A DNA stretch of 45,396 bases from a virus, in IMG/VR virus record IMGVR_UViG_3300045988_083430; one strand, 5' to 3'. Within the stretch, counting starts at the first letter, position 1. Each line of letters starts with the position of its first letter. A program made the translations under genes and the position numbers. The notes beneath the pieces are model-generated. The model saw only the letters and a list, made by a program, of their open reading frames with translations. It was not told the DNA's origin and did no database searches. Of this stretch, positions 19,573 to 45,396 are shown one piece after another.

Positions 19573-19928
19573 AATATCGAAAGCTTGATAGTAAAGGTGA
19601 TTATTCCTTTGGCTCTGGCTTTTCAGATTTTATTTATGATAAAAACGTCATTGCTCAAGCTATTAAAACAAAAATTTTGCTGTTTTATGGTGAATGGTGG
19701 GAGCAGATAGATGACGGTATTCCAATGTTTCAATCAATACTTGGTGCCTATGATACTGAAACAGTTAAGCTAGCTTCAAATAGGCTGATGATTGATCGTA
19801 TTCGCCAGGTCGATGGAGTTACAGATGTTTCTGAAGCTAAAACAAATGTTATTGGTCGAAAGCTGTATTTAAGCTACAGAGTAGATACAATTTATGGACA
19901 AATAGAAGGAGGTGTTGAGGTTGGCTGA
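19569..19928 (+). CDS. Baseplate wedge protein (gp25/W position)
   Basis: 119 aa between the spike and the J-like gene. Assignment is by position only. Confidence 0.4.
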   Translation: MKYRKLDSKGDYSFGSGFSDFIYDKNVIAQAIKTKILLFYGEWWEQIDDGIPMFQSILGAYDTETVKLASNRLMIDRIRQVDGVTDVSEAKTNVIGRKLYLSYRVDTIYGQIEGGVEVG

Positions 19929-21105
19929 TACATATACTGCTCCATATATTGACGATGCAGGACTTCATATTCCTACATATGCTTCAATATTGGAACAGCT
20001 TGTAGATGATATGAAAACCATTTTTGGTTCAGATATTTATCTTGAAAATGATTCAATGGACTATCAGCAGCTTTCAATCCATGCAAGATTCATTTATGAT
20101 ACATATCTGGCACTTCAGATGGCATACTCAAGCAGGTCTCCTGCTTATGCAGTCGGTGTTGCTTTGGATTCGCTTTCTCCTTTGTTTGGTGTATATCGAA
20201 TTCCGGCAACTAAATCAAATGTAGAACTTACAATCACAGGTGAAAGTGGAACAATTCTTAATCACTGTGTTGCTTCTGATAGCTCGGCTAATAAATGGAT
20301 TATTCCTGACGGTACAACTATTCCTGATACTGGTGCTATTACGATTCAGTGTGAATCTGAGGAATACGGAAGAATCCTTTCAGCTGCTAATACAATTACA
20401 AATATTGATACTCCTGTTTATGGTTGGCTTTCTGTAACTAATAATTCACCTTCTACTCCCGGTGTTGATACAGAAACAGATGCTTCGCTTAGAGCTAGAA
20501 TGTTTAATGCTTCGTTTGCTCCTGCTTATTCAATTCTTGAAGGCATGATTTCAACGTTGAATAATATAACAGGCGTAACAAGAGTTGTTGGCTACGAAAA
20601 CGACCAGGACACGGCTGATGCGAATGGTATTCCTCCTCATTCAATTTGTATTGTTGTGGATGGAGGAAAAGACGAGGATATTGCTACTCAGATTTACATG
20701 AAGAAAACGCCTGGTGTTGGCACATATGGTACTACATCAGTTGATGTTACTTCAATTTACGGCAATCAGAACACAATTAAGTTTTATCGTCCCACAGCTA
20801 CTCCGGTATATTTCAAGATTGGAATTAAGCAGTTGCCTGGATATAATCCTGAAGTTCTTAATACAATCAAGGAAAAGCTGAATGAATATCTGGACACACT
20901 TCAGATTGGTGATGCTATTTATAATTCTTCTGTCTGGGGCGTAATACTTTCAGCACAATCTGCTCTGAATAATCCTACATTTGCTATTACTTCAGTTCAG
21001 ATGTCTACTGATGGTACAACATATTCAACAAACGATATTACATGTGCTTTTAATGAGTATCATAAAACAGATAATGATAAAATCACTATTACAGTGACGC
21101 AGTGA
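19921..21105 (+). CDS. Baseplate J-like protein
   Basis: About 394 aa at the expected position. TTG at 19921 lies 8 nt after AGGAGG; the track ORF opens at GTG 19912. Confidence 0.55.
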   Translation: MADTYTAPYIDDAGLHIPTYASILEQLVDDMKTIFGSDIYLENDSMDYQQLSIHARFIYDTYLALQMAYSSRSPAYAVGVALDSLSPLFGVYRIPATKSNVELTITGESGTILNHCVASDSSANKWIIPDGTTIPDTGAITIQCESEEYGRILSAANTITNIDTPVYGWLSVTNNSPSTPGVDTETDASLRARMFNASFAPAYSILEGMISTLNNITGVTRVVGYENDQDTADANGIPPHSICIVVDGGKDEDIATQIYMKKTPGVGTYGTTSVDVTSIYGNQNTIKFYRPTATPVYFKIGIKQLPGYNPEVLNTIKEKLNEYLDTLQIGDAIYNSSVWGVILSAQSALNNPTFAITSVQMSTDGTTYSTNDITCAFNEYHKTDNDKITITVTQ

Positions 21106-21114
21106 GGTGATTAA

Positions 21115-21684
21115 ATGGCTATTGAAGTTCAGAATTATATAGACCTAATCACTTCAGAGTATTACAATAATCCTAAGTTTACTACAATGACTCGTAAGAT
21201 ATTGGAAAAGGATTATGCTTCAACTTCAATACTTGAGCATTTGTGGGACTATTTCAAACTTGATACAGCAACAGGTTCGCAGCTTGATGTAATAGGTCAA
21301 TATCTCAATATAACAAGGGAACTTCCTATTGACAGCTCTGTTTTACCTGATGTGCTTACAGATGACCTTTACAGGCTAGTTCTTAAAGCTAGAGTACTTC
21401 AATATCATTGGGATGGAACAATAGAGGGTATTTACAAAATAACTCGAGAGCTCCTTCCTAATACACTAATTTGGTTGGTAGACAATCAAGATGGCTCATA
21501 TCAGATGTTGCTAATGTCACCTAATTTTGATGATAAAATATCTGAGCTGTTTATTCTTGGTTATATTACTCCAAAACCTGCTGGCATTAAAGTTACTTAT
21601 ACATTGTTCGAAAAGCCGTTCTTCGCTTGGGATAAAGATGACCAATATTATAAAGGCTGGGATAATTCCGTATGGCTTAGATAA
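21115..21684 (+). CDS. Baseplate wedge / fibre adaptor (gpI position)
   Basis: 189 aa following the J-like gene. Confidence 0.35.
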   Translation: MAIEVQNYIDLITSEYYNNPKFTTMTRKILEKDYASTSILEHLWDYFKLDTATGSQLDVIGQYLNITRELPIDSSVLPDVLTDDLYRLVLKARVLQYHWDGTIEGIYKITRELLPNTLIWLVDNQDGSYQMLLMSPNFDDKISELFILGYITPKPAGIKVTYTLFEKPFFAWDKDDQYYKGWDNSVWLR

Positions 21685-21696
21685 GGAGGTGTTCAT

Positions 21697-22545
21697 ATGG
21701 GTCAAAATAAACTGTTACCATTTAATCCAAATAATCAGAATATCCTCACTGATGCTGCTTATCAAGCTAGCTCGGAGCGATTGAATGGTAATACGAAAGG
21801 TTCAACAGCAAACTCTGAGTTGGTAAATAAAGCTCTAAAACAGGCTGGAGCAGTGGCTAATGCAATCGGACAAATTGTTACAATCAACAATGGACCTGAT
21901 GCTGATGATAGTAAACCTTCAGATATTGCTCTCGGTATGTTCCAGAACCTGAAGTCAACATATCATGCAAGCTTCGCGGTAGCCGACACAGGTGTTTGGA
22001 ACCTGACGATTGCAGATTCACTTACAACATCACAAACAGCTCCGACTCTAATGTATGGCATATTTGTTGCAATTACAGCTTCACCTTCTGACAATCAAAC
22101 AGTTAGTATCAATGGAGCTGCTGCTATTCCCGTTAAAATAAATGCAACAGATAATTTGAAAGCAGGAGATTTTACAGCTTCAACAACTAATCCTTTGCCT
22201 ATGTTGTTCCTGATTTCAAATAATGTAGCGTACCTTCAGATTTGGGTAAAGCATACTGACCAGATATTCCCTACTTATGGTACAACAACAGTTACAGGAG
22301 ATAGCTGGACTACAGTAGTTGAAGGCGAAACATTCAGTAAAGTTCTTAATATTGCTGGCGTATATGCTGATTCACTTGTAAATGTTCAGATTCCATATCA
22401 AACAATTAAGTTGTTTCTTGATAACTCAGTTTATGGTATGTATGCTTCAAATACAAATGGAACTGTAACGCTGTTTGTTCAAGCAGATGAAGCTCCAAAC
22501 TTTGAATTTAATATTCAATACACTATTGAAAAGTTCACATCATAA
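21697..22545 (+). CDS. Tail fibre protein
   Basis: 282 aa. N-terminus NSELVNKALKQAGAVANAIGQIV is typical of fibre shafts. Position after the baseplate genes. Confidence 0.5.
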   Translation: MGQNKLLPFNPNNQNILTDAAYQASSERLNGNTKGSTANSELVNKALKQAGAVANAIGQIVTINNGPDADDSKPSDIALGMFQNLKSTYHASFAVADTGVWNLTIADSLTTSQTAPTLMYGIFVAITASPSDNQTVSINGAAAIPVKINATDNLKAGDFTASTTNPLPMLFLISNNVAYLQIWVKHTDQIFPTYGTTTVTGDSWTTVVEGETFSKVLNIAGVYADSLVNVQIPYQTIKLFLDNSVYGMYASNTNGTVTLFVQADEAPNFEFNIQYTIEKFTS

Positions 22546-22558
22546 GGAGGTGTAGTTA

Positions 22559-22870
22559 ATGGGTATTCGTAGAGGTACTACACCGAAACTTACGTATCAG
22601 CTTGACATTCCTGTTTCAAACATTCAAGCTTTTAGAATTGCTTTTTCGCAATCATCTAATATATTGTTTGTATTGGACCAGGATTCACAAGAAGTGACAA
22701 CAGAAGATAACAAAATTATTGTTCATTTTACATCTGAACAAACTATGATGTTTACTGTTGGTATTGATGTTGATACACAAATCAGAGCAAAGGTAGCTGG
22801 TGAAACATATGCAACAGATATTTTCTCAGTTGACCCACTCTGCATTTTGGAGGACGGTGAATTGAATTGA
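22559..22870 (+). CDS. Hypothetical tail-fibre-region protein (103 aa)
   Basis: AGGAGG RBS and a long ORF. Confidence 0.5.
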   Translation: MGIRRGTTPKLTYQLDIPVSNIQAFRIAFSQSSNILFVLDQDSQEVTTEDNKIIVHFTSEQTMMFTVGIDVDTQIRAKVAGETYATDIFSVDPLCILEDGELN

Positions 22871-23136
22871 CATTAAATTGTAAATTGATTCCCGAACCCA
22901 AAACATTGTACATGAAATTTATTGAGGAACCGAGAATATTGTCGGCTAAACTTAATATTGAGAACTTAGTAGACCTCGAATATTATGACGGTCCATATAT
23001 CTCGATTCCCAATAAATTTGCTCAAACGTATTCAACAGCAAATAAGGTCATGAGAGAAGATTTTGTTGTTGACGAAATCCAATATGCTCAAGTAACAAAT
23101 CTCGCTGGTGGACTAACTACAACTATAGGAGGATAA
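22867..23136 (+). CDS. Hypothetical tail-fibre-region protein (89 aa)
   Basis: TTGA-overlapping TTG start. Alternative ATG at 22912, so the start is uncertain. Confidence 0.4.
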   Translation: MTLNCKLIPEPKTLYMKFIEEPRILSAKLNIENLVDLEYYDGPYISIPNKFAQTYSTANKVMREDFVVDEIQYAQVTNLAGGLTTTIGG

Positions 23137-23140
23137 TTAA

Positions 23141-23725
23141 ATGCCTGAAACTAAGTATACTTCAAAAGTAGTCTATTTTGGTGAAACGCTCATTGACTTG
23201 ACAAACGACACAGTTGAACCCAGCAAGCTCCTTAAGGGATTTACAGCTCACGATAAGTCTGGTGCTCCTATCGTAGGTACAAGCACATTTGACGCTGATA
23301 CTCAGGATGCTACAGCTGCAGCTGCTGAGATTCTTTCTGGTAAAACAGCTTATGTAAAAGGCTCAAAGGTAACTGGTTCAATGCCCAATAAAGGTGCAGT
23401 TGAAGGTTATATTTCTGATAAAACTCAGCCTTATATGATTCCCGCTGGTTATCATGATGGCGCTGGTTCAGTTGGTATCGCTTCTGCAGAAGCTGCTAAG
23501 CTGATTGCTTCTAATATTAAAGATGGCGTATCAATCCTCGGTGTTACTGGTACTTATGCTGGTGAACTTACAAAAGGCCAGACTAAGACGGTTACTCCTA
23601 CAAAGGATGGTTTTACTGTTACTCAAGATGAAGGTTATGATTATCTTGCTTCTGTAGTTGTTAATCCCATTCCTTATGCAGTTACAGATAATACTGCTGG
23701 TGGTCAGACAGTTACAATTGGTTAA
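23141..23725 (+). CDS. Tail fibre-like protein with three internal LxGxTAxxxxGxxIxGT-type repeats
   Basis: LLKGFTAHDKSGAPIVGT, ILSGKTAYVKGSKVTGS, NIKDGVSILGVTGT. N-terminus is paralogous to the next ORF. Confidence 0.5.
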   Translation: MPETKYTSKVVYFGETLIDLTNDTVEPSKLLKGFTAHDKSGAPIVGTSTFDADTQDATAAAAEILSGKTAYVKGSKVTGSMPNKGAVEGYISDKTQPYMIPAGYHDGAGSVGIASAEAAKLIASNIKDGVSILGVTGTYAGELTKGQTKTVTPTKDGFTVTQDEGYDYLASVVVNPIPYAVTDNTAGGQTVTIG

Positions 23726-23746: not shown

Positions 23747-24154
23747 ATGGCAGTAAATAAAGTAGTATATTCCGGTGATACACTTATGGATATAACAGAT
23801 ACTACAGCTACAGAAGATTCTGTTGTAAAAGGAAAAACATTTTATAAAGCAGACGGAACAAGGGCAATAGGTACAGCGGAATATGAACCATTGATAGTTA
23901 AATTCAATCGTACTTTAGCTCCAGCATCGTGGACTGCATACGGTAATTATTTTAGGCAAACTGTAATGGGTTCACAAGAAACAAACGCTAAATTCGATTT
24001 GCAGTTTGATATAGCACAATTAGAACAGCTTGCTAACGATGGTGTAACAGCTATTGTAGCAATAAATGAAGATGGAACTGTATATGTATATTGCACGGGA
24101 GCTAAACCATCTGCATCAATGCCTGTGCAAATTACAAAGACTCTCTTATATTAA
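23747..24154 (+). CDS. Small fibre-like protein sharing the N-terminal module of 23141-23725
   Basis: KVVYSGDTLMDITDTTATEDSVVKGKTFYKADGTRAIGT compared with KVVYFGETLIDLTNDTVEPSKLLKGFTAHDKSGAPIVGT. Confidence 0.5.
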   Translation: MAVNKVVYSGDTLMDITDTTATEDSVVKGKTFYKADGTRAIGTAEYEPLIVKFNRTLAPASWTAYGNYFRQTVMGSQETNAKFDLQFDIAQLEQLANDGVTAIVAINEDGTVYVYCTGAKPSASMPVQITKTLLY

Positions 24155-24167
24155 GGAGGTTAAATAG

Positions 24168-25459
24168 ATGAGTACAATTATTGGCAACGCTGTCACCATC
24201 GGAGGGGGGGCGCTAAGCTAAACATAGATTACGGTTCTACCCCTCCAACTGACACAACAAAACTATGGGTGCCTTTGGCGAAGAAACCGGATGCTGTTGA
24301 GTGTAGTCCTGTTTTGAATTATGGAAATGAATACACTGAGACAAAGAACTGGACAGTTGGTTTTTCTCAGCTTAGAAGTGACAATCCGCAAATGTGTTCG
24401 TACGGTAATTATATTTATTCTGTTTGCCCATTTATAGGTAGTCAGCAAAATGATATATATAGATATGATGTAACAACAGGAGAAAGAACGACTTTTTATT
24501 CAGACCTGGTTTACCAATATAGTGTACTCGCATTTACTGTTGGCAAATACATGTATACTTTTAACCATACTGTTGGAGCAGAATCTGAGTATGTAGATAA
24601 GTTTGATTTGGAAACAGGAGAAAAAACTATACTAAGAAATGTTTCTTATCCCTTTACAGGCACAGATACATACTATTTTTCAAGTGGTTGTGTTAGTGGA
24701 AATAAAATATTTCTTGTTGGTTCATATGTTGGAAGTATAAACTCTGCTACTGTATCAGTTTTCGATGTAACAACAGAAAAATTTACTTATCATGGAAATA
24801 TGCCAGTACAAGCTCAAGGAACCTATAAAGCAGCTTGTGTTGCAGTAGGAAGCAAAGTTTATGTATTTGGAGGCACAACAAGGGTATCATTTGACCCACG
24901 GAAGTCTATACAGACATTTGATGTTGATACGCAAGAATATACTCAGAATAACAATGTACTACCTTATATAGTGAACTATGTAAATAGGTGCTGTAGATTT
25001 GGTAACTATGCATATATCTTTGGAAATATAGATACTACTCTGTATCGAAAAAAGATAATTCGTGTAAATTTAGATACCTTGGTCGTTGATGTGCTTGAGC
25101 TTGAATTACACGCAGATAGAATATCAGCTTGCTGCGGATTTGTTGGTGATAAATTTTATCTTCTTGGGGGTTCTAATGCTTCTTCAGTAGAAACATTTAC
25201 GCAATCGACTGTTTTGCAACAAAATCATTTATTTCTACAAGCAGACTTTGGATTTAACAATCCATTCCCACTGATAAACGATAAAGGCGTAAAGATAACA
25301 GCATACTTGAGAAATGCCTACCTTGGTGACAGTAACAATATCGCACAATTAACAAACGCATATCTCTACGACAGCAAAGACCTCAAATGGAAATCCCTTT
25401 CCGGTGAAAGCTATGTAGCGGATATGCAGAACGCACTAAATATATTAGGGGTGAACTAA
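24168..25459 (+). CDS. Kelch-like beta-propeller receptor-binding candidate, copy 1. The reading frame is broken at a G7 tract (phase-variable, slippage-dependent, or a pseudogene/assembly error).
   Basis: AGGAGG-N8-ATG at 24168 gives MSTIIGNAVTIGGGALS*. The -1 frame continues AKLNIDYGSTPPTDTTKLWVPLAKKP... to 25459. Six GxxxYxFGG...D..T blades. Colinear with copy 2. Confidence 0.6.
24204..24210 (+). repeat. G7 homopolymer at the frame break of the receptor-binding gene
   Basis: ggaGGGGGGGcg. G8, or a -1 slip, restores TIGGGGAKLNIDYG. Confidence 0.9.
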
Positions 25460-25481
25460 ATACTCACCCCGGAAAGGGTGA
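25448..25481 (+). promoter_or_regulatory. Two mutually exclusive hairpins at the junction between receptor-binding copies 1 and 2
   Basis: ggggtga (25448-25454) can pair with tcacccc (25464-25470). Alternatively tcaccc (25464-25469) can pair with gggtga (25476-25481), just upstream of ATG 25484. Confidence 0.4.
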
Positions 25482-25483
25482 AT

Positions 25484-26842
25484 ATGAGTATTTTAGGAAA
25501 TCCTATTACGCTGGGTGGCGGTGGAGCTGATTTGAACATTGACTTTGGTTCCACACCTCCCACAGATACAAGTAAACTGTGGGTTCCGCTAGCGAAGAAA
25601 CCAAGCAATATTTCATTGCAGACCGGAGTTGATGTTGGTGATTTTGCTCTTAGGACTATTTCTGTTACAGATACTTCGGGTTCGGCATTTACAATTCCAG
25701 GTTTTTCGAGTGTAGCAGATGATGGTGAAAATGGGTGGCTATTTTTTGGTCATCAAGGTGGAGGAACATGGCAATATCCACAAGGAACAAAAAATGTATG
25801 GCATTTAAGTAATTCTGGCGTTTGTGAGTATCTTGGAGAGCTTTTAAGCTATCCGACTGTAGATGCGAAGTGTATTAGATATGGTAAATATATTTATATT
25901 TTTGGAGGCTATGATGTTTCATACTTATCAGCGTCCAAAAATTATCGTGGTTTGCCAATGATTCAGAAATACAATATAAAAGATAAAACATGTACTGTTA
26001 TTTGGCGTGTTGATAAAGAGACATACGAAAATTCTTGGACAGCTTCTTTAGGCGGCCCGTGGGTAAATACAAAAATTTGTATAATTAGCGGCAAAATTTA
26101 TTTAGTTGGTGGTAATGGCGATACAACTGAAACAATCAATGGCGTCAATGCCAGGTCTAATGTAGAAATTAGGGTGCTTAATCCTCTAAATGACGGATTT
26201 TCTTCCTCAACTGCTATTAGTGACTTACGTTCAATCTATATTCAAATTTCAGCAATAAGCGATAAAAAGATTGCAGCATCAGATAGTGGAGAAACATTTG
26301 GATGGCTTTATGATATTAAAAAAGCTACTGGAACTAAAACTATTCCTTATTATGCTGGACATGCTAGTCCCATTGCAAGCAATCAATCTATACCAATGTA
26401 TTATCAAGAGAATTCATTTACGCTGTCTACTGACGGCAAAGTATATAAATACTTGCCTGATGTAAACCAATTTGAAACAAATCCAACTGCAACAATAACT
26501 GCAACTATGCCGTCTTATAACTCTCCTCGAGGGTTTAATGATGGTAACGCTTTTTGGGGTGTCGGTACAAACTTCTACAACCTCGAGATGAAATCACCAC
26601 TTACCAACAACAATATGATTATTACTTTGGATATTCAAGGCACGGTATGGAAAGCATTGAACACTAAGGACACGCAAGCGAGTGTATATCCTATCAAGGT
26701 TTTGGTTGGCGATACCGATGGGTGGGCAGTACAAAAAGATGCTTACTTGTACGATACCACAACAAGCAAATGGACAAAGCTTGATGGTTCTTCTACCTAT
26801 CAAGATATGGTAAACGCACTTAATATTTTGGGGGTGAACTAA
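25484..26842 (+). CDS. Kelch-like beta-propeller receptor-binding candidate, copy 2
   Basis: MSILGNPITLGGGGADLNIDFGSTPPTDTSKLWVPLAKKP. GKYIYIFGGY and GKIYLVGGNG blades. C-terminus YLYDTTTSKWTKLDGSSTYQDMVNALNILGVN matches copy 1. Confidence 0.7.
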   Translation: MSILGNPITLGGGGADLNIDFGSTPPTDTSKLWVPLAKKPSNISLQTGVDVGDFALRTISVTDTSGSAFTIPGFSSVADDGENGWLFFGHQGGGTWQYPQGTKNVWHLSNSGVCEYLGELLSYPTVDAKCIRYGKYIYIFGGYDVSYLSASKNYRGLPMIQKYNIKDKTCTVIWRVDKETYENSWTASLGGPWVNTKICIISGKIYLVGGNGDTTETINGVNARSNVEIRVLNPLNDGFSSSTAISDLRSIYIQISAISDKKIAASDSGETFGWLYDIKKATGTKTIPYYAGHASPIASNQSIPMYYQENSFTLSTDGKVYKYLPDVNQFETNPTATITATMPSYNSPRGFNDGNAFWGVGTNFYNLEMKSPLTNNNMIITLDIQGTVWKALNTKDTQASVYPIKVLVGDTDGWAVQKDAYLYDTTTSKWTKLDGSSTYQDMVNALNILGVN

Positions 26843-26971
26843 ATGGGTTATTACACAGAAAAAGCCAAAGAAGTAAAGGCAAAACAGGAAGCAGAGCTTG
26901 CACAGTTGAAAGCAGCTTTGCAGACCATTGGCGTAGAAACAGAAGAAAAGGAGGTGACAGAAGATGCGTGA
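26843..26971 (+). CDS. 42-aa coiled-coil small protein (MGYYTEKAKEVKAKQEAELAQLKAALQTIG...)
   Basis: TAAATG-coupled to the upstream gene and overlaps the next ATG by 8 nt. Below the track cutoff. Confidence 0.45.
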   Translation: MGYYTEKAKEVKAKQEAELAQLKAALQTIGVETEEKEVTEDA

Positions 26972-27398
26972 TGACATTCAGAAACAGGCAGAACAGATTA
27001 GGACTAGCATGGATAATGTTTGTGGCAACCTCGCTGATGATGAAGCTATAAAGAACCTTATGCTGTTCCTGCCTTGGGAAGCTGATGTTGCCTATGTTGT
27101 TGGCGACAGACGCAGAGAAGCTGACAAGCTATATAAATGCATTCAGGCACACACTTCACAGGTTGGTTGGGAGCCGAGTAAAGTTCCTGCCCTGTGGACA
27201 GCAATTAACACGGGGCACGCTGGTTCAATTGATGACCCCATTCCTGCAAGCCGTGGCATGGAATATGAATACGGCAAGTACTACCTTGACCCGGAGGACG
27301 GCAAAACATACCTCTGCAAGCGTGGAAGTGAAACAGGCACCATTATCCTGCAGTACCTCCCGCATGAGCTTATCGGACACTACTTTGAAGTAGTTTAA
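26964..27398 (+). CDS. CBM5/12 (chitin-binding-type) carbohydrate-binding domain protein
   Basis: WEADVAYVVGDRRREADKLYKCIQAHTSQVGWEPSKVPALW closely matches the CBM5/12 consensus (..YKCxQxHTSxxGWEPSxVPALW). Confidence 0.7.
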   Translation: MRDDIQKQAEQIRTSMDNVCGNLADDEAIKNLMLFLPWEADVAYVVGDRRREADKLYKCIQAHTSQVGWEPSKVPALWTAINTGHAGSIDDPIPASRGMEYEYGKYYLDPEDGKTYLCKRGSETGTIILQYLPHELIGHYFEVV

Positions 27399-27446
27399 TA
27401 TATATCCTTTCAAGGCACTAAAATGCAAGAAAGGAGGACGATAAAC

Positions 27447-27716
27447 ATGCAGCCAGAATTATGGACGCTGATTGGTACAATATTTGTTGGTATTTGTTCT
27501 GTTCTTGGTGTGATAATTACAAACAATAAAGCCAATCGCGATTTTGATTCTAAGCTTGATAAAGCTCAAGCAATTACTGATTACAAAATAGAAGAACTAA
27601 CAAGAGAAGTAAGGCTACACAATGATTTTGCTAAACGCATTCCTGTTATAGAAGAACAAATGAAAGTAGCAAATCATCGTATAGAAGATATTGAAAAACA
27701 ACATGGAGGTAATTAA
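27447..27716 (+). CDS. BhlA/XhlA-like lysis-associated membrane protein
   Basis: One N-terminal TM segment (LWTLIGTIFVGICSVLGVIIT) followed by a coiled coil. AAGGAGG-N9-ATG. Precedes the holin and amidase genes. Confidence 0.5.
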   Translation: MQPELWTLIGTIFVGICSVLGVIITNNKANRDFDSKLDKAQAITDYKIEELTREVRLHNDFAKRIPVIEEQMKVANHRIEDIEKQHGGN

Positions 27717-27717
27717 A

Positions 27718-28029
27718 ATGGAAGAATTTGTTACTTGGGGTTCACTTGGTACTTATGCCGGTTGCGCAATGATGGTTACACTGATTACTCAGTTCTTGAA
27801 GCAGTTTAGCTTTATGAAGAACATTAACAGTCAGATTATTTCCTATTTTGTAGCTGTTCTTATTCTGATTGGTTCCCTTTGCTTCAGTCAGTCAGGTGAA
27901 CCTGTTAATCCCGAAACTGTTATCCTTTGTTTTGTAAATGCTGTTATCGTAGCTCTTGGTTCTAACGGTATTTATGACGGTGTAACAACTGGTATGGAAG
28001 CTATTCAGACTTATAAACATGAGGAGTGA
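27718..28029 (+). CDS. Holin (three predicted TM segments)
   Basis: 103 aa. Hydrophobic segments YAGCAMMVTLITQFL, IISYFVAVLILIGSLCF and VILCFVNAVIVALGS, charged C-terminus. Lies immediately upstream of the endolysin. Confidence 0.6.
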   Translation: MEEFVTWGSLGTYAGCAMMVTLITQFLKQFSFMKNINSQIISYFVAVLILIGSLCFSQSGEPVNPETVILCFVNAVIVALGSNGIYDGVTTGMEAIQTYKHEE

Positions 28030-28034
28030 TTTAG

Positions 28035-28730
28035 TTGGCAATTAGAGTTTATTTGTCACCTGAACGCAGACCAAAACCACATTCACCCTATTATGGTTAT
28101 CCTGGTATATACGAACATGATGTTTGCTGTGAAATAGCTGAATATACTAAAAACGCTTTGGTTCGTTGTGGTTTTGAAGTTAAAATAGCTTCACCAAACG
28201 ACAACATGAAAGTTAGAGTTGCTGAAGGTATTTCATGGAAAGCTAACTATTACATGCCAATTCATACAAATGCTGCTACAGCCACACTAAACGAAGGAAC
28301 AGCTCGTGGTCCTTGTGTGCTTAGATATGGCAAAGAAGGTGGTATTTCAGATAGGGCATGCAAAATAGTTTATAAACAGCTCATGGCGATTTATCCCAAT
28401 AAATCAAACAGAAGCAATCCTGTTTATGAACGCTCAGATTTCTATGAGATTGGTCAAACTCCCATGCTTTCTGTTTATCCTGAGCTTGCTTTCCATGATA
28501 ATCACGAAGATGCTGATTGGTTGGTTAACAATAAAAAAGAAATAGCTGAAGCTTTGTGTAAAGGTGTTTGTGAATGGTATTCAGTAAATTATGTAAATCC
28601 AGCATCTGAACCTACTAACACAGTTCCTAAAGCTAAATACGACGAAATAGTAAAAGAAAGAGACGCTTATAAGCAAAAATACGATTCATTGGTTATTTCA
28701 CTTACAAACCTTTATGAGTCACTTAAATAA
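28035..28730 (+). CDS. Endolysin, N-acetylmuramoyl-L-alanine amidase
   Basis: TTG start after GAGGAG. IHTNA and ELAFHDNHEDADW motifs typical of MurNAc-LAA amidases. Last gene of the late operon. Confidence 0.7.
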   Translation: MAIRVYLSPERRPKPHSPYYGYPGIYEHDVCCEIAEYTKNALVRCGFEVKIASPNDNMKVRVAEGISWKANYYMPIHTNAATATLNEGTARGPCVLRYGKEGGISDRACKIVYKQLMAIYPNKSNRSNPVYERSDFYEIGQTPMLSVYPELAFHDNHEDADWLVNNKKEIAEALCKGVCEWYSVNYVNPASEPTNTVPKAKYDEIVKERDAYKQKYDSLVISLTNLYESLK

Positions 28731-32020: not shown

Positions 32021-32242
32021 ATGTATTACGTTGAAACTAATTATTACTCGAGAAATAATGGTCATTCTTATAGGAGCTTTAGCTGCAAAGAAGATGCAAT
32101 AAAAGAAGCAGCTGCTATCTATTATGCAACCAAAGAAGAAGTAATAATTGGTGACAGCAATACAGGCTGTGTTCTTATTTGTTTTAACAAACTATCACAA
32201 CACGCAGATTTAATTAAAAAATACTTAGGGAGGCGGCTATGA
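32021..32242 (+). CDS. Hypothetical protein (73 aa)
   Basis: AAAGGAA RBS. ATGA-coupled to the next gene. Confidence 0.5.
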   Translation: MYYVETNYYSRNNGHSYRSFSCKEDAIKEAAAIYYATKEEVIIGDSNTGCVLICFNKLSQHADLIKKYLGRRL

Positions 32243-33189
32243 AAGGACTAATCGTTGTAGTAGAAGGACTCGAAAGGACTGGTAAAACTACTCTTTGTAA
32301 AGAATTTGAAAAACGTGGATTCGTTTATTTCAAGGATTTCAATCGAATCAATAAACACAATCGTATAGGAATGGAATCAAGGCTCGATACAACTCTTACG
32401 TTTCTTCAGAATCTTTCTGAAAATGGTGTAAATGTTGTAGTAGATAGACTTCATCTCTCAGAATATTCGTATGGAAATATTTTTAGAAATCTACAGGGAA
32501 CTGCATGTAATATTGATTATATCGATAATGCAATCAGTAAACTCAATTCAGTTCTTATTTACTGTAAAGGCAATGACTTTGAAGAATATAAAAAGAGAAT
32601 GCTTCTAAAATATACTCCTGAACAGGTAAAAAAGCTTTCTAATGAGTTCGAATATTATTTCGATAAATCTGAGATTAAGAATAAATTTGAATATGAATTT
32701 TCTCAGTATAATGCATCGGAATATGTTAATCTTATTTTTAAGTGTGTCGATTACTATGAATATGATTTCTATCTCGCTTCACCTTTCTTTAAAGATAGCC
32801 AAATTCAAAGGGAAGAATCAGTAAAAAACGCTCTTAGAAACGAAATGTATACGGTTTACTCTCCCAGAGAGAACGGAATTCTTACACCTGACGCAACAGA
32901 CGAAGTAAGAACAAAGATATTCAAAGAGAATTGTGAAGCTATTCAGAAATCTCATAGAATCTTGGCAATCACAGATGAAAAAGACATTGGAACAATCTGG
33001 GAAGCAGGTTACGCTTACGGTATCGGAAAAGAAGTTGTTTACTATGCCGAAACACTTGGAGACAATCCGTTTAATGTAATGCTTGGTAAATCTGGAATTG
33101 GTATTTTTACAAAATATAGTGATTTGATAGACGCAGCAAAAACAGGATCGTTCAACAATAAAAATGAGAAAGGATTGAATGTGCAATGA
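32239..33189 (+). CDS. Fusion of a P-loop dNMP/deoxynucleoside kinase-like domain and a nucleoside 2-deoxyribosyltransferase-like domain
   Basis: N-terminus VVVEGLERTGKTTL ... DRLHLSEYSY (Tmk/dNK-like). C-terminus FYLASPFF ... DIGTIWEAGYAYGIGKEVV (NDT/DNPH1-family motifs). Confidence 0.6.
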   Translation: MKGLIVVVEGLERTGKTTLCKEFEKRGFVYFKDFNRINKHNRIGMESRLDTTLTFLQNLSENGVNVVVDRLHLSEYSYGNIFRNLQGTACNIDYIDNAISKLNSVLIYCKGNDFEEYKKRMLLKYTPEQVKKLSNEFEYYFDKSEIKNKFEYEFSQYNASEYVNLIFKCVDYYEYDFYLASPFFKDSQIQREESVKNALRNEMYTVYSPRENGILTPDATDEVRTKIFKENCEAIQKSHRILAITDEKDIGTIWEAGYAYGIGKEVVYYAETLGDNPFNVMLGKSGIGIFTKYSDLIDAAKTGSFNNKNEKGLNVQ

Positions 33190-33760: not shown

Positions 33761-34678
33761 ATGCCGGTAAATAATAATCTTAAACAATGCGGTTTCCCTA
33801 TGAATGTTAGGTTTGATGAAAAGCCTACTACAGTATTTAAGAACAATTTGGATTCTATCAAGGTAACGCTACTTGACCATCCTGATCAGGAAAATGCGAT
33901 TAACTATATGAGCATGTTCCTTGATGCTACATGGGTTGATACTCCTGCTGAATCAGCTAATATGAGTAAAGATAAGAAAATTCAGTATCTTAAAGACTGC
34001 ATTGCTGGTAAAGCTCTTCCTACAGCTTTGGAAACTATGCAGTTTACATTCCTTATTGAGGGCATTTCACTTCAGGAAGTAACTCATATTCTTAGAACTC
34101 GTACAGCTTCGTTCTCTGCTGACTGTTCTGCTGATAAGTGGTGGACTCATAAAGCTGCTTTGGTCCCTAATGCTATTCAGAATTCTCCTGAACTGTATGA
34201 ACGATATAAGAAACTTGTTGAAGAAACAAAACAGCTTTATTGCGACATTATTGATAGCAGACAGATTTCTATCATGGATGCTCGTTATATCCTCCCTCGT
34301 TGTTTGGAAACCTTCTATTATATGAGCATTGACTTTAAGAATCTTGTATCGTTCTTGCATCAGAGATTTGATAGACAGATTCAGCCAGAAACAGACAATG
34401 TTCTTGCTTATAAGATGTATGATGAACTTATTACAGCAATGCCCATTTTCAAAGGCTTGATTGATATTGATGAAGTTCCTCGTCATTGGGTTGCTACTTC
34501 TCGTACTGGTAAGTGCACTAACCTTTATAAGCCTGAAGAAAATGCAGATGTAATTGAATATAACGAAAATGATTTTATTTATAATGTAAAACGTTCAGAA
34601 CTTAATGGTACAAATCCTGGTGCTACTAATAAGTTCACTCAGTATTATAATCATTATAAAAAGAAATTCAGCGAATAA
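33761..34678 (+). CDS. thyX: ThyX-fold (flavin-dependent thymidylate synthase-like) protein with a divergent signature
   Basis: FTFLIEGISLQEVTHILRTRTASFSADCSAD aligns to the ThyX core FTFxIxGxSR....RHRxxSxxxxSxRY, but His, the Arg of SxR and other conserved residues are replaced. Confidence 0.55.
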   Translation: MPVNNNLKQCGFPMNVRFDEKPTTVFKNNLDSIKVTLLDHPDQENAINYMSMFLDATWVDTPAESANMSKDKKIQYLKDCIAGKALPTALETMQFTFLIEGISLQEVTHILRTRTASFSADCSADKWWTHKAALVPNAIQNSPELYERYKKLVEETKQLYCDIIDSRQISIMDARYILPRCLETFYYMSIDFKNLVSFLHQRFDRQIQPETDNVLAYKMYDELITAMPIFKGLIDIDEVPRHWVATSRTGKCTNLYKPEENADVIEYNENDFIYNVKRSELNGTNPGATNKFTQYYNHYKKKFSE

Positions 34679-34688
34679 GGAGAAATAA

Positions 34689-37355
34689 ATGAGCTTTTAC
34701 GATATACATCATCACTCTGAATTTTCATTGTTTGATGGTATGGCAAAAGTAAAAGATGCTGCAAAGTATGCTAAAGAATTAGGTTACCCTGCGCTTGGTA
34801 ATACTGACCATGGAAATATTTCAGCTTTGATTAAACATTTTAATGCATGCTCAGAGCAAGATATAATTCCTATTCTTGGATGCGAATTTTACTTTCAGCC
34901 TAAAATCAATCATGACAAACCCAGTTACCATTTGTGCTTGTTTGCTAATAGCTTTGAGGGTTGGAAAAATCTTAATAGGCTCACTTCTATTGCTAACGAT
35001 GATGAGCACTATTATTATAAGCCAAAACTTACTTTCGCTGACCTCAAGGAACATTCTGAAGGAATTGTATGCTCTTCAGCTTGTATTGGTGGTTATATAC
35101 CACAACTTTTGGTGAAACAAAATGAAGAAAAAGCAGATAAAGCTATTAAGAAATTCATTAGTATTTTTGGTAAAAACTTCTTTATTGAAATTCAGCCTAT
35201 TGAACTTCAAGGTGAAAATGAAGTTGAAGGACTTGAGAATTCTCAAATAATCATCAATAATGAACTCATCAGAAAGGCTAAAGAATTTAATATTCCTGTT
35301 ATTGCTACTTCAGATTCACATTTCATTAAAAAGGAAGATTTCCCAACTTACCTTAAGATGCATGCAATCAAAGGTTCTACACTTGGTGATGGTTATTCAG
35401 AACGATTTATGCCTTCTGAGAAATGCATGTATAAGAGAATTAAGAAATATCATAAAGATGATTTTGACTTCATCACAAAAGGATATGATACTTTCTTAAA
35501 ACGTGTTGGTGATTCAAGGGAATGGTTTGAATTTGAAACTGAAATGCCAGAATTTACAAATGACCCTGAAGAAACATTTAGATTGATGAAAAAGAAATGT
35601 TTGAAGACGCTCAAAGAGGAAGGCAAAACTTCTGATGAATATATGAAACGTCTTAAGCATGAATTTTCAGTAATCAAACATCATGGCTTTCAGGATTATT
35701 TCATGATTGTTCAGGAATATGTAAACTGGGCTCGTTCTCATGATATCGCTGTAGGACCTGGACGTGGTTCTGCTGGCAACTCTTTGGTAAACTACGCTCT
35801 TGGTATTACTAAAGTCGACCCAATATACTTTGGAAATAACTTTGATAGATTCTTGAGAAAAGACAAAAAGAAATTCCCTGATATTGATATGGACTTTTCC
35901 CAAAAGAATAGAGATAAAGTTATTCAGCACATCATTGAACAATATCCTGGTTCTGGTGCTCAAACAATAACATATGGTTGCTACAATATAAAGAATCTAA
36001 TATTGGATTTGGCTAAAGTTTGTGGAGCTGATTATAAAGATAAAGCTGAAATGGGAGCAATCAAGAAGTTCCTTGAAAAATATTGTGATGATAATGAATC
36101 AACGGTAGATGACGCTATTTATAATGACAAGAGATTTGATGAATACAATTCACTATATGATGATATTATCATTCACTTTATAAAGCTTTATGGTAAAGTT
36201 CGCTTCTTTGGAACACATGCTTCTTCTGTTATTCTTTGTGATGGTGACATCGTTTCTAAAGCTGGACTTTGTAGAATAGGAGGAAATTACAGAACATCAT
36301 TTGACCTTCATGATATGGAGATGATTAAGCTTCTTAAGCTTGATGTTCTTGGCCTTTCTACTACAGATAAAGTAAAAGAGCTCGAAGATATGTGCGGGGT
36401 ACATTTCAGCTATGATATTTTCAAAGATAAAGCTATGCTAAAAGGCTTTGAAAAAGGTAATGCTAGTGTATTTCAGTTTGAATCTCCTACGGCAAATGAT
36501 ATTGCTAAAGAAATTGGAATCGATAGCTTTGAAGATATTGTAGTTGCCACTTCAGTAAATAGACCTGGTCCTTTGTCCCTTAAGATGCACGAGAAATATA
36601 GAGACGCAAAGATTTCTCCTGACACTTCTTCTCCCTGGTATAAGTACACTAAACAGACTTATGGTACACTTATCTATCAGGAACAAGGCATGCCAATATG
36701 TAAAGAAATTGGTCAGCTGGACCCTGATACTACAGATAAGATTGTTAAAGCAGACTATCTGCATATTCCTCAGGAAAACCTTAAAGAATGGCAAGAGAAA
36801 TTCTATAAAGGTGCTAAAGAATATGGATTGAGCAAATCAGAAATGGAAACATTGTTCAATTCACTTATTCAGTATTCTTTTAACAGAGGACATGGTGTGG
36901 CTTATGCAATGCTTTCTGCAGAACTAATGTATTTCAAGGTTCATTACCCTTTGGAATTCTGGTATTCAACTCTTAAATGGGAGAACAACGCAGAAAAAAC
37001 TATCAAACAGGAAATCGGTGCCGTTCAAGATGGATGTATTATTCTTCTTCCTCATGTAAATGGTCCAATTGAATATGGTCTCGTAGAATATGATGGAGAT
37101 TTAGTCATTCAAAAAGGACTTTCTACTATTAAAGGTATCGGTGAAAAAGCTGCTGCTAAAATCGTAGAAGAACGTGAGAAGAATGGTAAGTTTAAGAATT
37201 ACAAAGATTTCTGCGATAGATGTGAAGTCACAAAGATAGCTAATATAAAGACAGTAGCTGCTTTGGAAAAAGAAGGTGCTTTGGATTTCAATCAGAAACG
37301 TTGGCTTTCTAGAGTAGAGAAATATAATGTTTCATTGTATGGAAGGAGCTTATAA
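34689..37355 (+). CDS. dnaE: DNA polymerase III alpha subunit-like replicative polymerase (PHP + Pol IIIa core + HhH)
   Basis: HHHSEFSLFDG and GNTDHGN (PHP domain), GRGSAGNSLVNYALGITKVDP, FPDIDMDF, GLSTIKGIGEKAAAKI. 888 aa. Confidence 0.85.
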   Translation: MSFYDIHHHSEFSLFDGMAKVKDAAKYAKELGYPALGNTDHGNISALIKHFNACSEQDIIPILGCEFYFQPKINHDKPSYHLCLFANSFEGWKNLNRLTSIANDDEHYYYKPKLTFADLKEHSEGIVCSSACIGGYIPQLLVKQNEEKADKAIKKFISIFGKNFFIEIQPIELQGENEVEGLENSQIIINNELIRKAKEFNIPVIATSDSHFIKKEDFPTYLKMHAIKGSTLGDGYSERFMPSEKCMYKRIKKYHKDDFDFITKGYDTFLKRVGDSREWFEFETEMPEFTNDPEETFRLMKKKCLKTLKEEGKTSDEYMKRLKHEFSVIKHHGFQDYFMIVQEYVNWARSHDIAVGPGRGSAGNSLVNYALGITKVDPIYFGNNFDRFLRKDKKKFPDIDMDFSQKNRDKVIQHIIEQYPGSGAQTITYGCYNIKNLILDLAKVCGADYKDKAEMGAIKKFLEKYCDDNESTVDDAIYNDKRFDEYNSLYDDIIIHFIKLYGKVRFFGTHASSVILCDGDIVSKAGLCRIGGNYRTSFDLHDMEMIKLLKLDVLGLSTTDKVKELEDMCGVHFSYDIFKDKAMLKGFEKGNASVFQFESPTANDIAKEIGIDSFEDIVVATSVNRPGPLSLKMHEKYRDAKISPDTSSPWYKYTKQTYGTLIYQEQGMPICKEIGQLDPDTTDKIVKADYLHIPQENLKEWQEKFYKGAKEYGLSKSEMETLFNSLIQYSFNRGHGVAYAMLSAELMYFKVHYPLEFWYSTLKWENNAEKTIKQEIGAVQDGCIILLPHVNGPIEYGLVEYDGDLVIQKGLSTIKGIGEKAAAKIVEEREKNGKFKNYKDFCDRCEVTKIANIKTVAALEKEGALDFNQKRWLSRVEKYNVSLYGRSL

Positions 37356-45135: not shown

Positions 45136-45396
45136 ATGGATGCTTTGGAATTTATTAAATATCTCAAAAAAATGTGTGCGCAATATGGAGTAGAAAATCA
45201 AAAACATGCTTTTTGTCAAGGATGTCCAGCTTTAACAGAAGAAGACGAAATATGTATTGCCAATTTTCAATTTGAATCATGTGTTCCAAATAAAGCTGTA
45301 GAAGCAGTAGAGAAATATGCAAAAGAAAATCCGATAAAAACACGAAGCAGCGAATTTCTGAAGTATTATCCAATCGCTGATGTATTATACAATGGA
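45136..45396 (+). CDS. N-terminal part of the junction-spanning Cys-rich protein (continues at nt 56-175)
   Basis: ATG at 45136, still open at the window end. The antisense ORF 45164-45373 is judged spurious. Confidence 0.7.
   Translation, partial: MDALEFIKYLKKMCAQYGVENQKHAFCQGCPALTEEDEICIANFQFESCVPNKAVEAVEKYAKENPIKTRSSEFLKYYPIADVLYNG
45342..45396. repeat. 55-bp exact terminal direct repeat (copy 2)
   Basis: Identical to nt 1-55. Confidence 0.95.

Follow-up and report, generated by a model that had tools for sequence, protein, structure and literature searches.

Why is the first of two tandem Kelch genes in a gut phage interrupted at a run of seven G's, with the rest of the protein encoded in another frame? 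This gene (Kelch gene 1, hereafter gene 1) lies in a 45,396-nucleotide (nt) viral sequence, IMG/VR record IMGVR_UViG_3300045988_083430. We refer to this whole stretch of DNA as the window. The initial annotation of the window suggested that the run of G's could be an ON/OFF contingency locus for a host-range gene or else a slippage site, and it listed an assembly error and a decaying pseudogene as duller alternatives. We propose that the run is a hypermutable contingency tract that switches gene 1, a putative receptor-binding gene, ON and OFF, and that the window contains an OFF allele. We consider this reading likely because the homopolymer lies inside the open reading frame (ORF), because its length is polymorphic far above the background rate of insertions and deletions (indels), and because the frame toggles in a gene that is intact and under selection.

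A frame break at a poly-G tract

The start of gene 1 and the frame break consist of the following features:

24154-24159, + strand: Shine-Dalgarno (SD) sequence AGGAGG of gene 1, read from the sequence, with an 8-nt spacer to the ATG at 24168-24170
24168-24221, + strand: OFF-frame 5' fragment of gene 1, with 17 codons (MSTIIGNAVTIGGGALS) and a TAA stop at 24219-24221
24204-24210, + strand: poly-G tract G7 (GGGGGGG), inside codons 13-15 and flanked by A24203 and C24211
24209-25459, + strand: body of gene 1 in the −1 frame (GAKLNIDYG...NALNILGVN), with a TAA stop at 25457-25459

The initial annotation had described a short ORF that is opened by AGGAGG-N8-ATG at 24168 and ends at 24219-24221, with the remainder of the protein in the −1 frame, which extends to 25459, lacks a ribosome binding site or ATG of its own, and is called from an internal GTG at 24269. 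All of these coordinates match ours. The −1 frame is open from 24164, and 416 codons remain after the break. It contains no ATG, GTG, or TTG upstream of the GTG at 24269, and no SD sequence precedes that GTG. Four relatives (L028, L029, L031, and L035) have the same arrangement of SD and ATG as the window. The two frames do meet at the G7, as had been stated, and one extra G restores the protein: inserting it in silico gives a Kelch protein of 430 amino acids (aa) (...TIGGGGAKLNIDYG...) that is colinear with relatives of 429-430 aa (88-94% identity). The body comprises conserved N-terminal (to about 24330) and C-terminal (from about 25313) modules on either side of a six-bladed Kelch propeller that is exchangeable. 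In a protein search, the gene calls for several relatives were shortened to 355-396 aa and began at internal codons.

The tract is the only run of six or more G's in the window. We rejected the argument that a G7 is improbable given the base composition, because 52% of first-order Markov simulations (155 of 300) contain such a run; for independent and identically distributed bases, the expectation in 45 kb is 0.56. The significance of the tract rests instead on its position at the sole frame break of an intact and conserved gene, on rare codon usage (GGG accounts for 32 of the 838 glycine codons in the window, or 3.8%, and there is no second GGG-GGG pair in the window's ORFs), and on the comparative data.

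Tract length varies between near-identical genomes

We collected 107 distinct alleles of gene 1 from 25 IMG/VR loci, from Logan and ENA contigs, and then from pattern scans of viral and metagenome collections. In all 25 IMG/VR loci, the first tandem gene has a poly-G run at the same position (7-11 G's) and the second gene has an interrupted Gly4. We anchored the ON/OFF calls on the SD sequence, and the internal ATG of MSVIYGNPIVTS variants was not taken as a start. The alleles were distributed as follows:

Tract length, 107 alleles: G7, 12; G8, 20; G9, 42 (the mode); G10, 18; G11, 11; G13, 3; G20, 1
Frame state, 107 alleles: ON, 35; OFF(−1), 42; OFF(+1), 25; start outside the contig, 5

With 67 alleles OFF and 35 ON, about two-thirds versus one-third, the proportions are frame-neutral. 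Together with the mode at nine, they match a frame-neutral mutational equilibrium. The single G20 (L068, positions 340-359) is an OFF(+1) allele; it reflects either extreme expansion or an artifact of sequencing poly-G.

Comparing the tract between relatives had been put forward as a check on the contingency hypothesis, and the length proved to range from G7 to G13 (besides the G20) and to vary between near-identical genomes. Ten pairs of alleles with under 1% divergence in their flanks all differ by 1-4 G's, although this comparison is affected by our having collapsed records with identical flanks and identical tract lengths as duplicates. The same pairs have no other indels in 19,959 aligned nt. 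L033 and L034 have one mismatch in 3 kb and carry G9 and G8. Three pairs have no mismatches at all in their 2-kb flanks and yet differ in the tract: L016/L017 (G8/G9), L024/L112 (G9/G8), and L040/L139 (G10/G11).

Within the allele class of the window, both states are represented. Seven alleles have G8 and are ON (L028, L029, L035, L063, L077, L099, and L107), and five have G7 and are OFF (the window, L031, L082, L102, and L106). L031 is a 46.4-kb contig from another sample that has the window's backbone. Contigs from run ERR1018249 (human gut, PRJEB10878) match the window itself at 100% identity over 7.2 kb, and two assemblers (Logan's, and MEGAHIT in ENA) both give G7 for this run. Among the ENA contigs whose names report a coverage of at least 10x, nine are OFF and five are ON, and the OFF contigs include some at 309-1203x. 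Finally, three independent contigs end exactly in the tract (L005/L050, L009/L098, and L037, at position 1 of each), which is expected if the tract is heterogeneous within a sample and breaks the assembly graph.

OFF alleles are intact and the tract is maintained

OFF alleles retain bodies of 402-439 codons that end in ...NALNILGVN. Five alleles have short downstream ORFs: L070, L088, and L128 lie near the end of their sequence, a second frameshift is present in L123, which has low coverage, and the C-terminus of L051 is aberrant. Pairwise ratios of nonsynonymous to synonymous substitution rates (dN/dS) are 0.12-0.35 (about 0.2), including for pairs in which both alleles are OFF. The intact bodies and the low dN/dS imply that gene 1 is maintained by selection and that the OFF state is transient.

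The tract itself is also maintained. When we retrieved N-terminal modules of the gene 1 type without selecting on the tract, 26 of 26 had at least seven G's at the same codon position. Apart from the tract, there is no G or C run of eight or more on either strand in 1.13 Mb of related, mostly partial loci. The paralog downstream offers a direct comparison:

25484-26842, + strand: Kelch gene 2 (hereafter gene 2), the paralog, with its ATG at 25484, the same N- and C-terminal modules as gene 1, and a different propeller (...TLGGGGADLNIDFG...)
25514-25525, + strand: Gly4 codons of gene 2, GGT GGC GGT GGA, read from the sequence

The initial annotation was thus correct that the paralog encodes its Gly4 with an interrupted sequence. 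Across 73 distinct alleles of the gene 2 type, we found 15 synonymous encodings of Gly4, all of them interrupted. The longest G run within these codons is 2 in 69 alleles, 3 in two alleles, and 5 in two alleles, and it never reaches 6. Taken together, the rarity of GGG codons, the 26 of 26 modules with the tract, the interrupted paralog, and the lack of other long G or C runs point to selection for mutability, with the tract being kept against the codon and composition bias.

There may be further constraint beside the tract. The 10 nt that follow it, TAAAACTCAA (for example, among class-A alleles, positions 4047-4056 of L002), are invariant in 87 alleles, including at three wobble positions. 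Later wobble positions are 50-80% conserved. This suggests constraint at the nucleotide level next to the tract. With G9, the 0 frame reads GGG GGG GGG TAA, so that a stop codon directly follows the run.

A Kelch propeller between conserved modules

The repaired product of gene 1 matches three Kelch families in Pfam (Kelch_6 at 49.6 bits, with a cut-off of 25.3; Kelch_1 at 33.3, with a cut-off of 20.1; and Kelch_2 at 27.8, with a cut-off of 21.3). An AlphaFold2 model built from a 24-sequence alignment has a confident propeller at residues 55-345, with the strands arranged in blades and pLDDT mostly 80-96, while the N-terminal residues 1-53 and the C-terminal residues 348-430 have low confidence. 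With motifs above the gathering thresholds and a predicted propeller fold, the product can be classified as a Kelch-repeat beta-propeller. The best matches from Foldseek against the PDB are eukaryotic Kelch domains (LZTR1, KLHDC, and KLHL, with E about 1e-12). Against BFVD, the structural matches are Kelch propellers from PhiPA3-like phages, with virion structural protein as their annotation.

Aligning the family shows near-invariance over roughly 50 residues at the N-terminus and roughly 80 at the C-terminus, while the propeller diverges to 25-40% identity. Similarly, DNA homology between gene 1 and its relatives (such as L102, L063, and L107) is lost at about 24312-24332 and is regained at 25313. 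The Kelch propeller cores are swapped as cassettes between the conserved N- and C-terminal modules, and with conserved ends and a diverging core, the propeller would be an exchangeable specificity cassette between docking modules. The Kelch genes lie between the baseplate genes, which precede them, and the lysis genes. We describe the gene 1 product as a putative receptor-binding protein because of this position, because of its architecture (an exchangeable propeller that sits between conserved docking modules), and because of its cassette-like variability.

Around gene 2, homology stops and resumes in the same pattern as around gene 1. Also, the core of the window's gene 1 is about 84% identical to the gene 2 core of many other phages.

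A proposed switch in adsorption specificity

If the tract is a contingency locus, then slipped-strand mispairing during replication would add or remove single G's, and the slipping replicase would presumably be the phage's own DNA polymerase III alpha subunit. For alleles of the window's class, G8 would be the in-frame (ON) length and would yield the 430-aa protein. With G7, as in the window, translation would end after 17 codons, and no protein with the conserved N-terminal module would be made. Gene 2, which has the same end modules and a non-slippery Gly4, would be constitutive, that is, always ON. The population would then stay mixed, with some progeny carrying both Kelch proteins and other progeny carrying the second only, and the mixture would be a form of bet-hedging of adsorption specificity. 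On the baseplate, the two proteins might compete with or complement each other, and the mixture would presumably be of selective benefit to the phage. Most of the contingency-locus hypothesis of the initial annotation is borne out: the tract is kept, its length varies, the body is intact, the paralog is interrupted, and G8 and G7 are ON and OFF within one class. The role in host range, however, we infer from context.

Several points weigh against this proposal. The evidence for length variation lies between samples and not within one phage population. The receptor-binding role of gene 1 is deduced from its context, and in the Foldseek search of the PDB, no solved phage receptor-binding protein resembled the gene 1 protein. 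In our DNA and tblastn searches, no cultured phage carried the cassette to which gene 1 belongs (described below), so that it is known from metagenomes alone. Having one-third of the alleles ON is also expected for a dispensable gene, and only the intact bodies and the dN/dS oppose this. The sample has its own biases: the large pattern scans required at least seven G's, which leaves the 26 alleles that were retrieved without reference to the tract as the sole unbiased set; shared phylogeny makes the alleles non-independent; and some records may represent one assembly that was deposited again. Finally, the excess of G9, with a TAA after the run, and the invariant 10 nt could point to slippage at the level of expression.

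Alternative explanations

In that case, the OFF lengths would be rescued by stuttering of RNA polymerase or by slippage of the P-site tRNA-Gly, and the tract would be a rheostat for dose, possibly on top of phase variation in the DNA. Long homopolymers are known sites of transcriptional slippage. In the commonest allele, G9, the homopolymer is combined with a stop codon in the A site, which favors slippage in the P site, and a −1 slip would give the same product as G10. The preponderance of OFF(−1) over OFF(+1) alleles (42 versus 25) and the invariance of TAAAACTCAA, wobble positions included, also fit with this idea. On the other hand, both directions of OFF occur, and the 25 OFF(+1) alleles would need the opposite correction, so there is no single conserved programmed shift. 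In the window, there is no stop beside the G7 and no canonical X XXY YYZ heptamer, and the 90 nt downstream of the tract are no more structured than shuffled sequences (z = +0.85). Efficient transcriptional slippage in bacteria has been documented mainly for A/T runs of at least nine bases. Furthermore, poly-G tracts in Campylobacter jejuni also have their mutational equilibrium at a mode of nine, irrespective of frame (PMC3401435). Overall, we think that slippage during expression is an unlikely explanation for the tract. Its strictest form, a programmed −1 ribosomal frameshift, is not supported: the 0 frame reads GGA GGG GGG GCG, which contains no heptamer, the downstream sequence has the unremarkable z-score just mentioned, and relatives would need shifts of both −1 (42 alleles) and +1 (25 alleles). 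The suggestion in the initial annotation that a −1 slip of tRNA-Gly occurs at a programmed site is therefore unsupported, as there is no heptamer, no structure, and no fixed direction, but some leakage at the run is possible.

The remaining alternatives do away with the switch altogether. If the G7 were a homopolymer error in sequencing or assembly, then the true sequence would be G8 and the gene would be intact. Homopolymers are error-prone, the window was assembled from short reads by a de Bruijn method (its ends overlap by 55 nt), the three related contigs that end exactly in the tract indicate that assemblers struggle there, and the Logan and ENA assemblies with G7 share the same reads and hence are not independent sequencing. 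Nevertheless, we consider such an error very improbable. The same OFF length recurs in the four other G7 alleles of the window's class, which are from other samples; OFF lengths are found at coverages of 309-1203x; and with lengths spanning 7-13, the +1 OFF states cannot arise by under-calling an ON length by one base. In addition, the roughly 20 kb of flanking sequence from near-identical pairs contains no other indel, even at A/T runs, and wherever we noted the same flanks in different databases (eight cases), the records had equal tract lengths. A homopolymer of 7-8 bases is also well within the consensus accuracy of Illumina sequencing. Another account is that gene 1 is a decaying pseudogene, made redundant by its paralog, and that the frameshift is its first lesion. 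This would explain why two-thirds of the consensus alleles are out of frame, the paralog is indeed present downstream, and L123 (at low coverage) and L051 do have a second frameshift and an aberrant C-terminus. But apart from these two and the three alleles near a sequence end (L070, L088, and L128), complete OFF alleles have full-length bodies and the conserved C-terminus, dN/dS stays near 0.2 even when both alleles compared are OFF, the lesion falls at the same tract every time, and the tract is conserved across backbones of 37-50% GC content. Given the intact bodies and the dN/dS, we reject decay, which we view as hardly credible. Lastly, the start codon could be misplaced, with the gene beginning at the GTG at 24269 and the upstream ATG and G run forming a non-coding leader or a small upstream ORF. 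Gene callers do annotate products of 396 aa (or 394, 381, or 355 aa; P0016-P0018, P0021, and P0023). However, the GTG has no SD sequence, full-length relatives start at the upstream ATG, and the stretch from the tract to the GTG encodes KLNIDYGSTPPTDTTKLWVPL, a segment that few parts of the family match in conservation (L18-L37 are invariant in the 24-sequence alignment, with synonymous variation at wobble positions). We give a start at this GTG practically no credence.

The junction between the two Kelch genes

Gene 2 follows closely behind gene 1, and the sequence that joins them has more than one potential fold:

25448-25496, + strand: junction of gene 1 and gene 2, with mutually exclusive pairings from fold calculations on a near-invariant sequence

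The motif TCACCCC can pair either with GGGGTGA in the last codons of gene 1 (H1, −12.1 kcal/mol) or with GGGTGA in the SD sequence of gene 2 (H2, −9.4 kcal/mol). Also, CTAAATACTCA at the junction has complementarity to the opening codons of gene 2. The junction is nearly invariant, with 20 sequence variants in 108 copies, and its fold has a z-score of −1.37. We found no covariation among these variants, as the region is too conserved. The junction may link the translation of gene 2 to the state of gene 1, by either coupling or insulation. We had considered the hairpins as evidence for a clear direction of coupling, but with three competing structures of similar energy and a z-score of −1.37, they do not point to one.

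A more elaborate hypothesis combines the junction with the tract in a two-level cassette that is portable between unrelated gut-phage backbones. Slippage in the DNA would set the genotype; the sequence G(n)-TAAAAC would let G9 alleles leak some in-frame protein (by a −1 slip at the stop or by polymerase stutter); and the hairpins at the junction would retune gene 2 according to the translation of gene 1. The outcome would be a graded ratio of two putative receptor-binding proteins on the baseplate, instead of an all-or-none state. We offer this only tentatively, as a rather doubtful extension of the contingency-locus hypothesis.

The cassette occurs behind several tail architectures

The two Kelch genes belong to a larger unit, or cassette, that consists of the poly-G Kelch gene, its paralog, a 43-aa ORF, a protein with CBM_5_12, and lysis genes. 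This cassette is found behind at least three tail or baseplate architectures, in loci of 37-50% GC content. It is preceded by a tape measure protein (TMP) and Dit_N in L026 and L030, by a 635-aa protein and a 731- or 785-aa protein in L032-L034, and by a DUF2612 wedge (the baseplate-J type) in the window, L029, L031, and L035. The presence of one cassette behind several architectures implies horizontal exchange of the whole host-recognition and lysis unit.

A DNA search with the 3.2-kb region against cultured phages gave a sole match of 93 nt. When we compared the repaired protein to 50,697 phage records with tblastn, we found weak Kelch matches in Paenibacillus and PhiPA3 phages and none in a Campylobacter phage. 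The nearest terminase from a cultured phage is that of an Agathobaculum phage (55% identity). Judging from the terminase and the endolysin, the hosts are probably uncultured gut bacteria of the Bacillota.

We also tried to assign hosts by scanning genome contigs, but this failed: the matches were a contig labeled as Helicobacter pylori, an Absicoccus contig that ends in the tract (from a metagenome-assembled genome, or MAG), and a weak match to a Ruminococcus MAG. The first of these (L036; NZ_JAHXLB010000019.1, "Helicobacter pylori strain SHZY19 contig_19") is 23.6 kb long and, across the tract region, does not differ from a human-gut phage contig in IMG/VR (L001). The 9.3-kb stretch of it that we examined has 47.5% GC content. 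It is probably contamination of the H. pylori assembly and not an H. pylori phage.

Relation to known switches

To our knowledge, phase-variable receptor-binding genes of phages have been studied experimentally in essentially one genus, of Campylobacter phages, and our literature search found no description of a poly-G Kelch system. In that genus, Fletchervirus, receptor-binding genes are described as having tracts of 7-11 G's that make expression phase-variable and that give rise to subpopulations able to infect hosts whose receptor is OFF (Sorensen 2021, Cell Rep 35:109214, as described in bioRxiv 10.1101/2025.10.21.683753, PMC8766974). As in Fletchervirus, the tract that we describe is an intragenic poly-G of similar length in a tail gene of a contractile-tailed phage, its length toggles the frame, and a mixed phage population would be the outcome, which we infer here from sequences alone. 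However, the two systems have no sequence homology (by tblastn against the 50,697 phage records), so this is an analogous mechanism rather than a member of the same family. Our protein is a Kelch propeller whose end modules are conserved. Each locus or genome has one tract (in the window and the 1.13 Mb of mostly partial loci), in contrast to the several tracts of Fletchervirus. The tract lies in an N-terminal module that travels on a cassette across backbones (baseplate-J, TMP with Dit, and a third type). And Campylobacter is not the host here: the phages infect uncultured gut bacteria that are probably Bacillota.

In C. jejuni, nine is the modal length of poly-G tracts, and mutation is biased towards insertion at G8 and towards deletion at G11 (Bayliss et al. 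2012, PMC3401435). Our tract resembles the poly-G/C contingency loci of C. jejuni, Neisseria, and Haemophilus in that it is a homopolymer in a coding sequence with a mode of nine, the ON and OFF states are scattered among close relatives, the gene is intact, and the mechanism would be slipped-strand mispairing. The differences are that the tract is on a virus with its own Pol III alpha replicase and that, as virions are built from the parental genome, the phenotype of a phage is one infection cycle behind its genotype.

In T-even and other cultured phages, short homopolymers lead to reversible frameshifts as a form of bet-hedging (Gomez, Barrick & Waters 2025, bioRxiv 10.1101/2025.10.21.683753). 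The runs of the T-even type are mostly short (at least six bases) and are in genes such as agt and rIIA, and homopolymer repeats are under-represented in tail fiber genes (bioRxiv 10.1101/2025.10.21.683753). In contrast, the locus we describe has a long G run that is positively maintained in a tail gene.

Other switches of phage host range include the invertible G and C segments of Mu and P1 (Gin/Cin) and diversity-generating retroelements (Mtd of BPP-1, and in gut phages). With any of these systems, and presumably with this tract, one genome yields virions with alternative receptor specificities. The means differ: inversion by Gin/Cin, mutagenic retrohoming by the retroelements, and, as we propose, replication slippage here. 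Homopolymers at frame junctions are also used in programmed −1 frameshifting (the tail assembly chaperone G/GT) and in transcriptional stuttering (G insertion in the P gene of paramyxoviruses). As in those systems, a message with one additional G would encode the restored protein. But here there is no conserved direction, heptamer, or downstream structure, the frames do not encode two useful products, and the OFF product is a peptide of 15-20 aa.

The kind of mechanism is known, but the family, the protein fold, the spread of the cassette across backbones, and the gut setting are new. The strategy is seen in widespread uncultured phages of the human gut: public viromes and metagenomes yield about 100 distinct alleles, on three or more tail architectures, and two-thirds of assembled genomes are OFF. 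If our reading is correct, then gene callers and host-range predictors systematically misread such genes as truncated or absent, and a tail gene that looks "frameshifted" in a virome is not to be written off as an error. Gut phages would also carry a standing and rapidly regenerated heterogeneity in adsorption specificity, which would bear on the coexistence of phages and hosts, on broad or shifting host ranges, and on the persistence of phages alongside hosts with phase-variable surfaces.

Other features of the genome

The window has an exact direct overlap of 55 nt between its ends (1-55 and 45342-45396), which resembles the k-mer overlap of a de Bruijn assembly and implies that it is a complete, circularly assembled genome of about 45.3 kb. 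Another contig, L146, is 100% identical to it. The genome encodes a portal, a major capsid protein, a DUF3383 sheath-like protein, an M23/hub protein, Baseplate_J, and a DUF2612 wedge, and small fiber-like ORFs come next, ahead of the Kelch genes. The phage is of the contractile-tail type and comes from a human gut metagenome. The annotated genes near the Kelch pair and in the replication module are:

19912-21105, + strand: Baseplate_J (Pfam/PHROG)
21115-21684, + strand: DUF2612 wedge (Pfam/PHROG)
21697-22545, + strand: tail-fiber-like protein (Pfam/PHROG)
26843-28730, + strand: downstream partners in the cassette (from gene order, Pfam matches of relatives, and PHROG)
28035-28730, + strand: endolysin (PHROG phrog_435, phrog_2742, and phrog_12727); the positional counterparts in relatives carry Amidase_3
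34689-37355, + strand: DNA polymerase III alpha, with PHP and Pol3 alpha domains (Pfam)

The downstream partners are, in order, a 42-aa ORF, a 144-aa protein that corresponds by position to the genes in relatives that match CBM_5_12, small ORFs at 27423-27716 and 27691-28029, and the endolysin. The replication module also includes DnaG and RecA. We noticed no integrase, invertase, or reverse transcriptase among the ORFs that we scanned, which were part of the genome.

Upstream of gene 1, the ORFs at 22867-23136 (...GGLTTTIGG*) and 23141-23725 (...GGQTVTIG*) have C-termini that resemble the N-terminal motif of the Kelch proteins (AVTIGGGG or PITLGGGG). The second of these ORFs matches only positions 735-937 of phrog_13589, which is 1042 aa long. 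Modules that other phages have in fused form may make up the fiber region.

A protein with a nucleoside 2-deoxyribosyltransferase domain (32239-33189) and a thymidylate-synthase-like protein (33761-34678) adjoin the Pol III alpha gene. This pair may indicate nucleotide salvage or modification of DNA bases.

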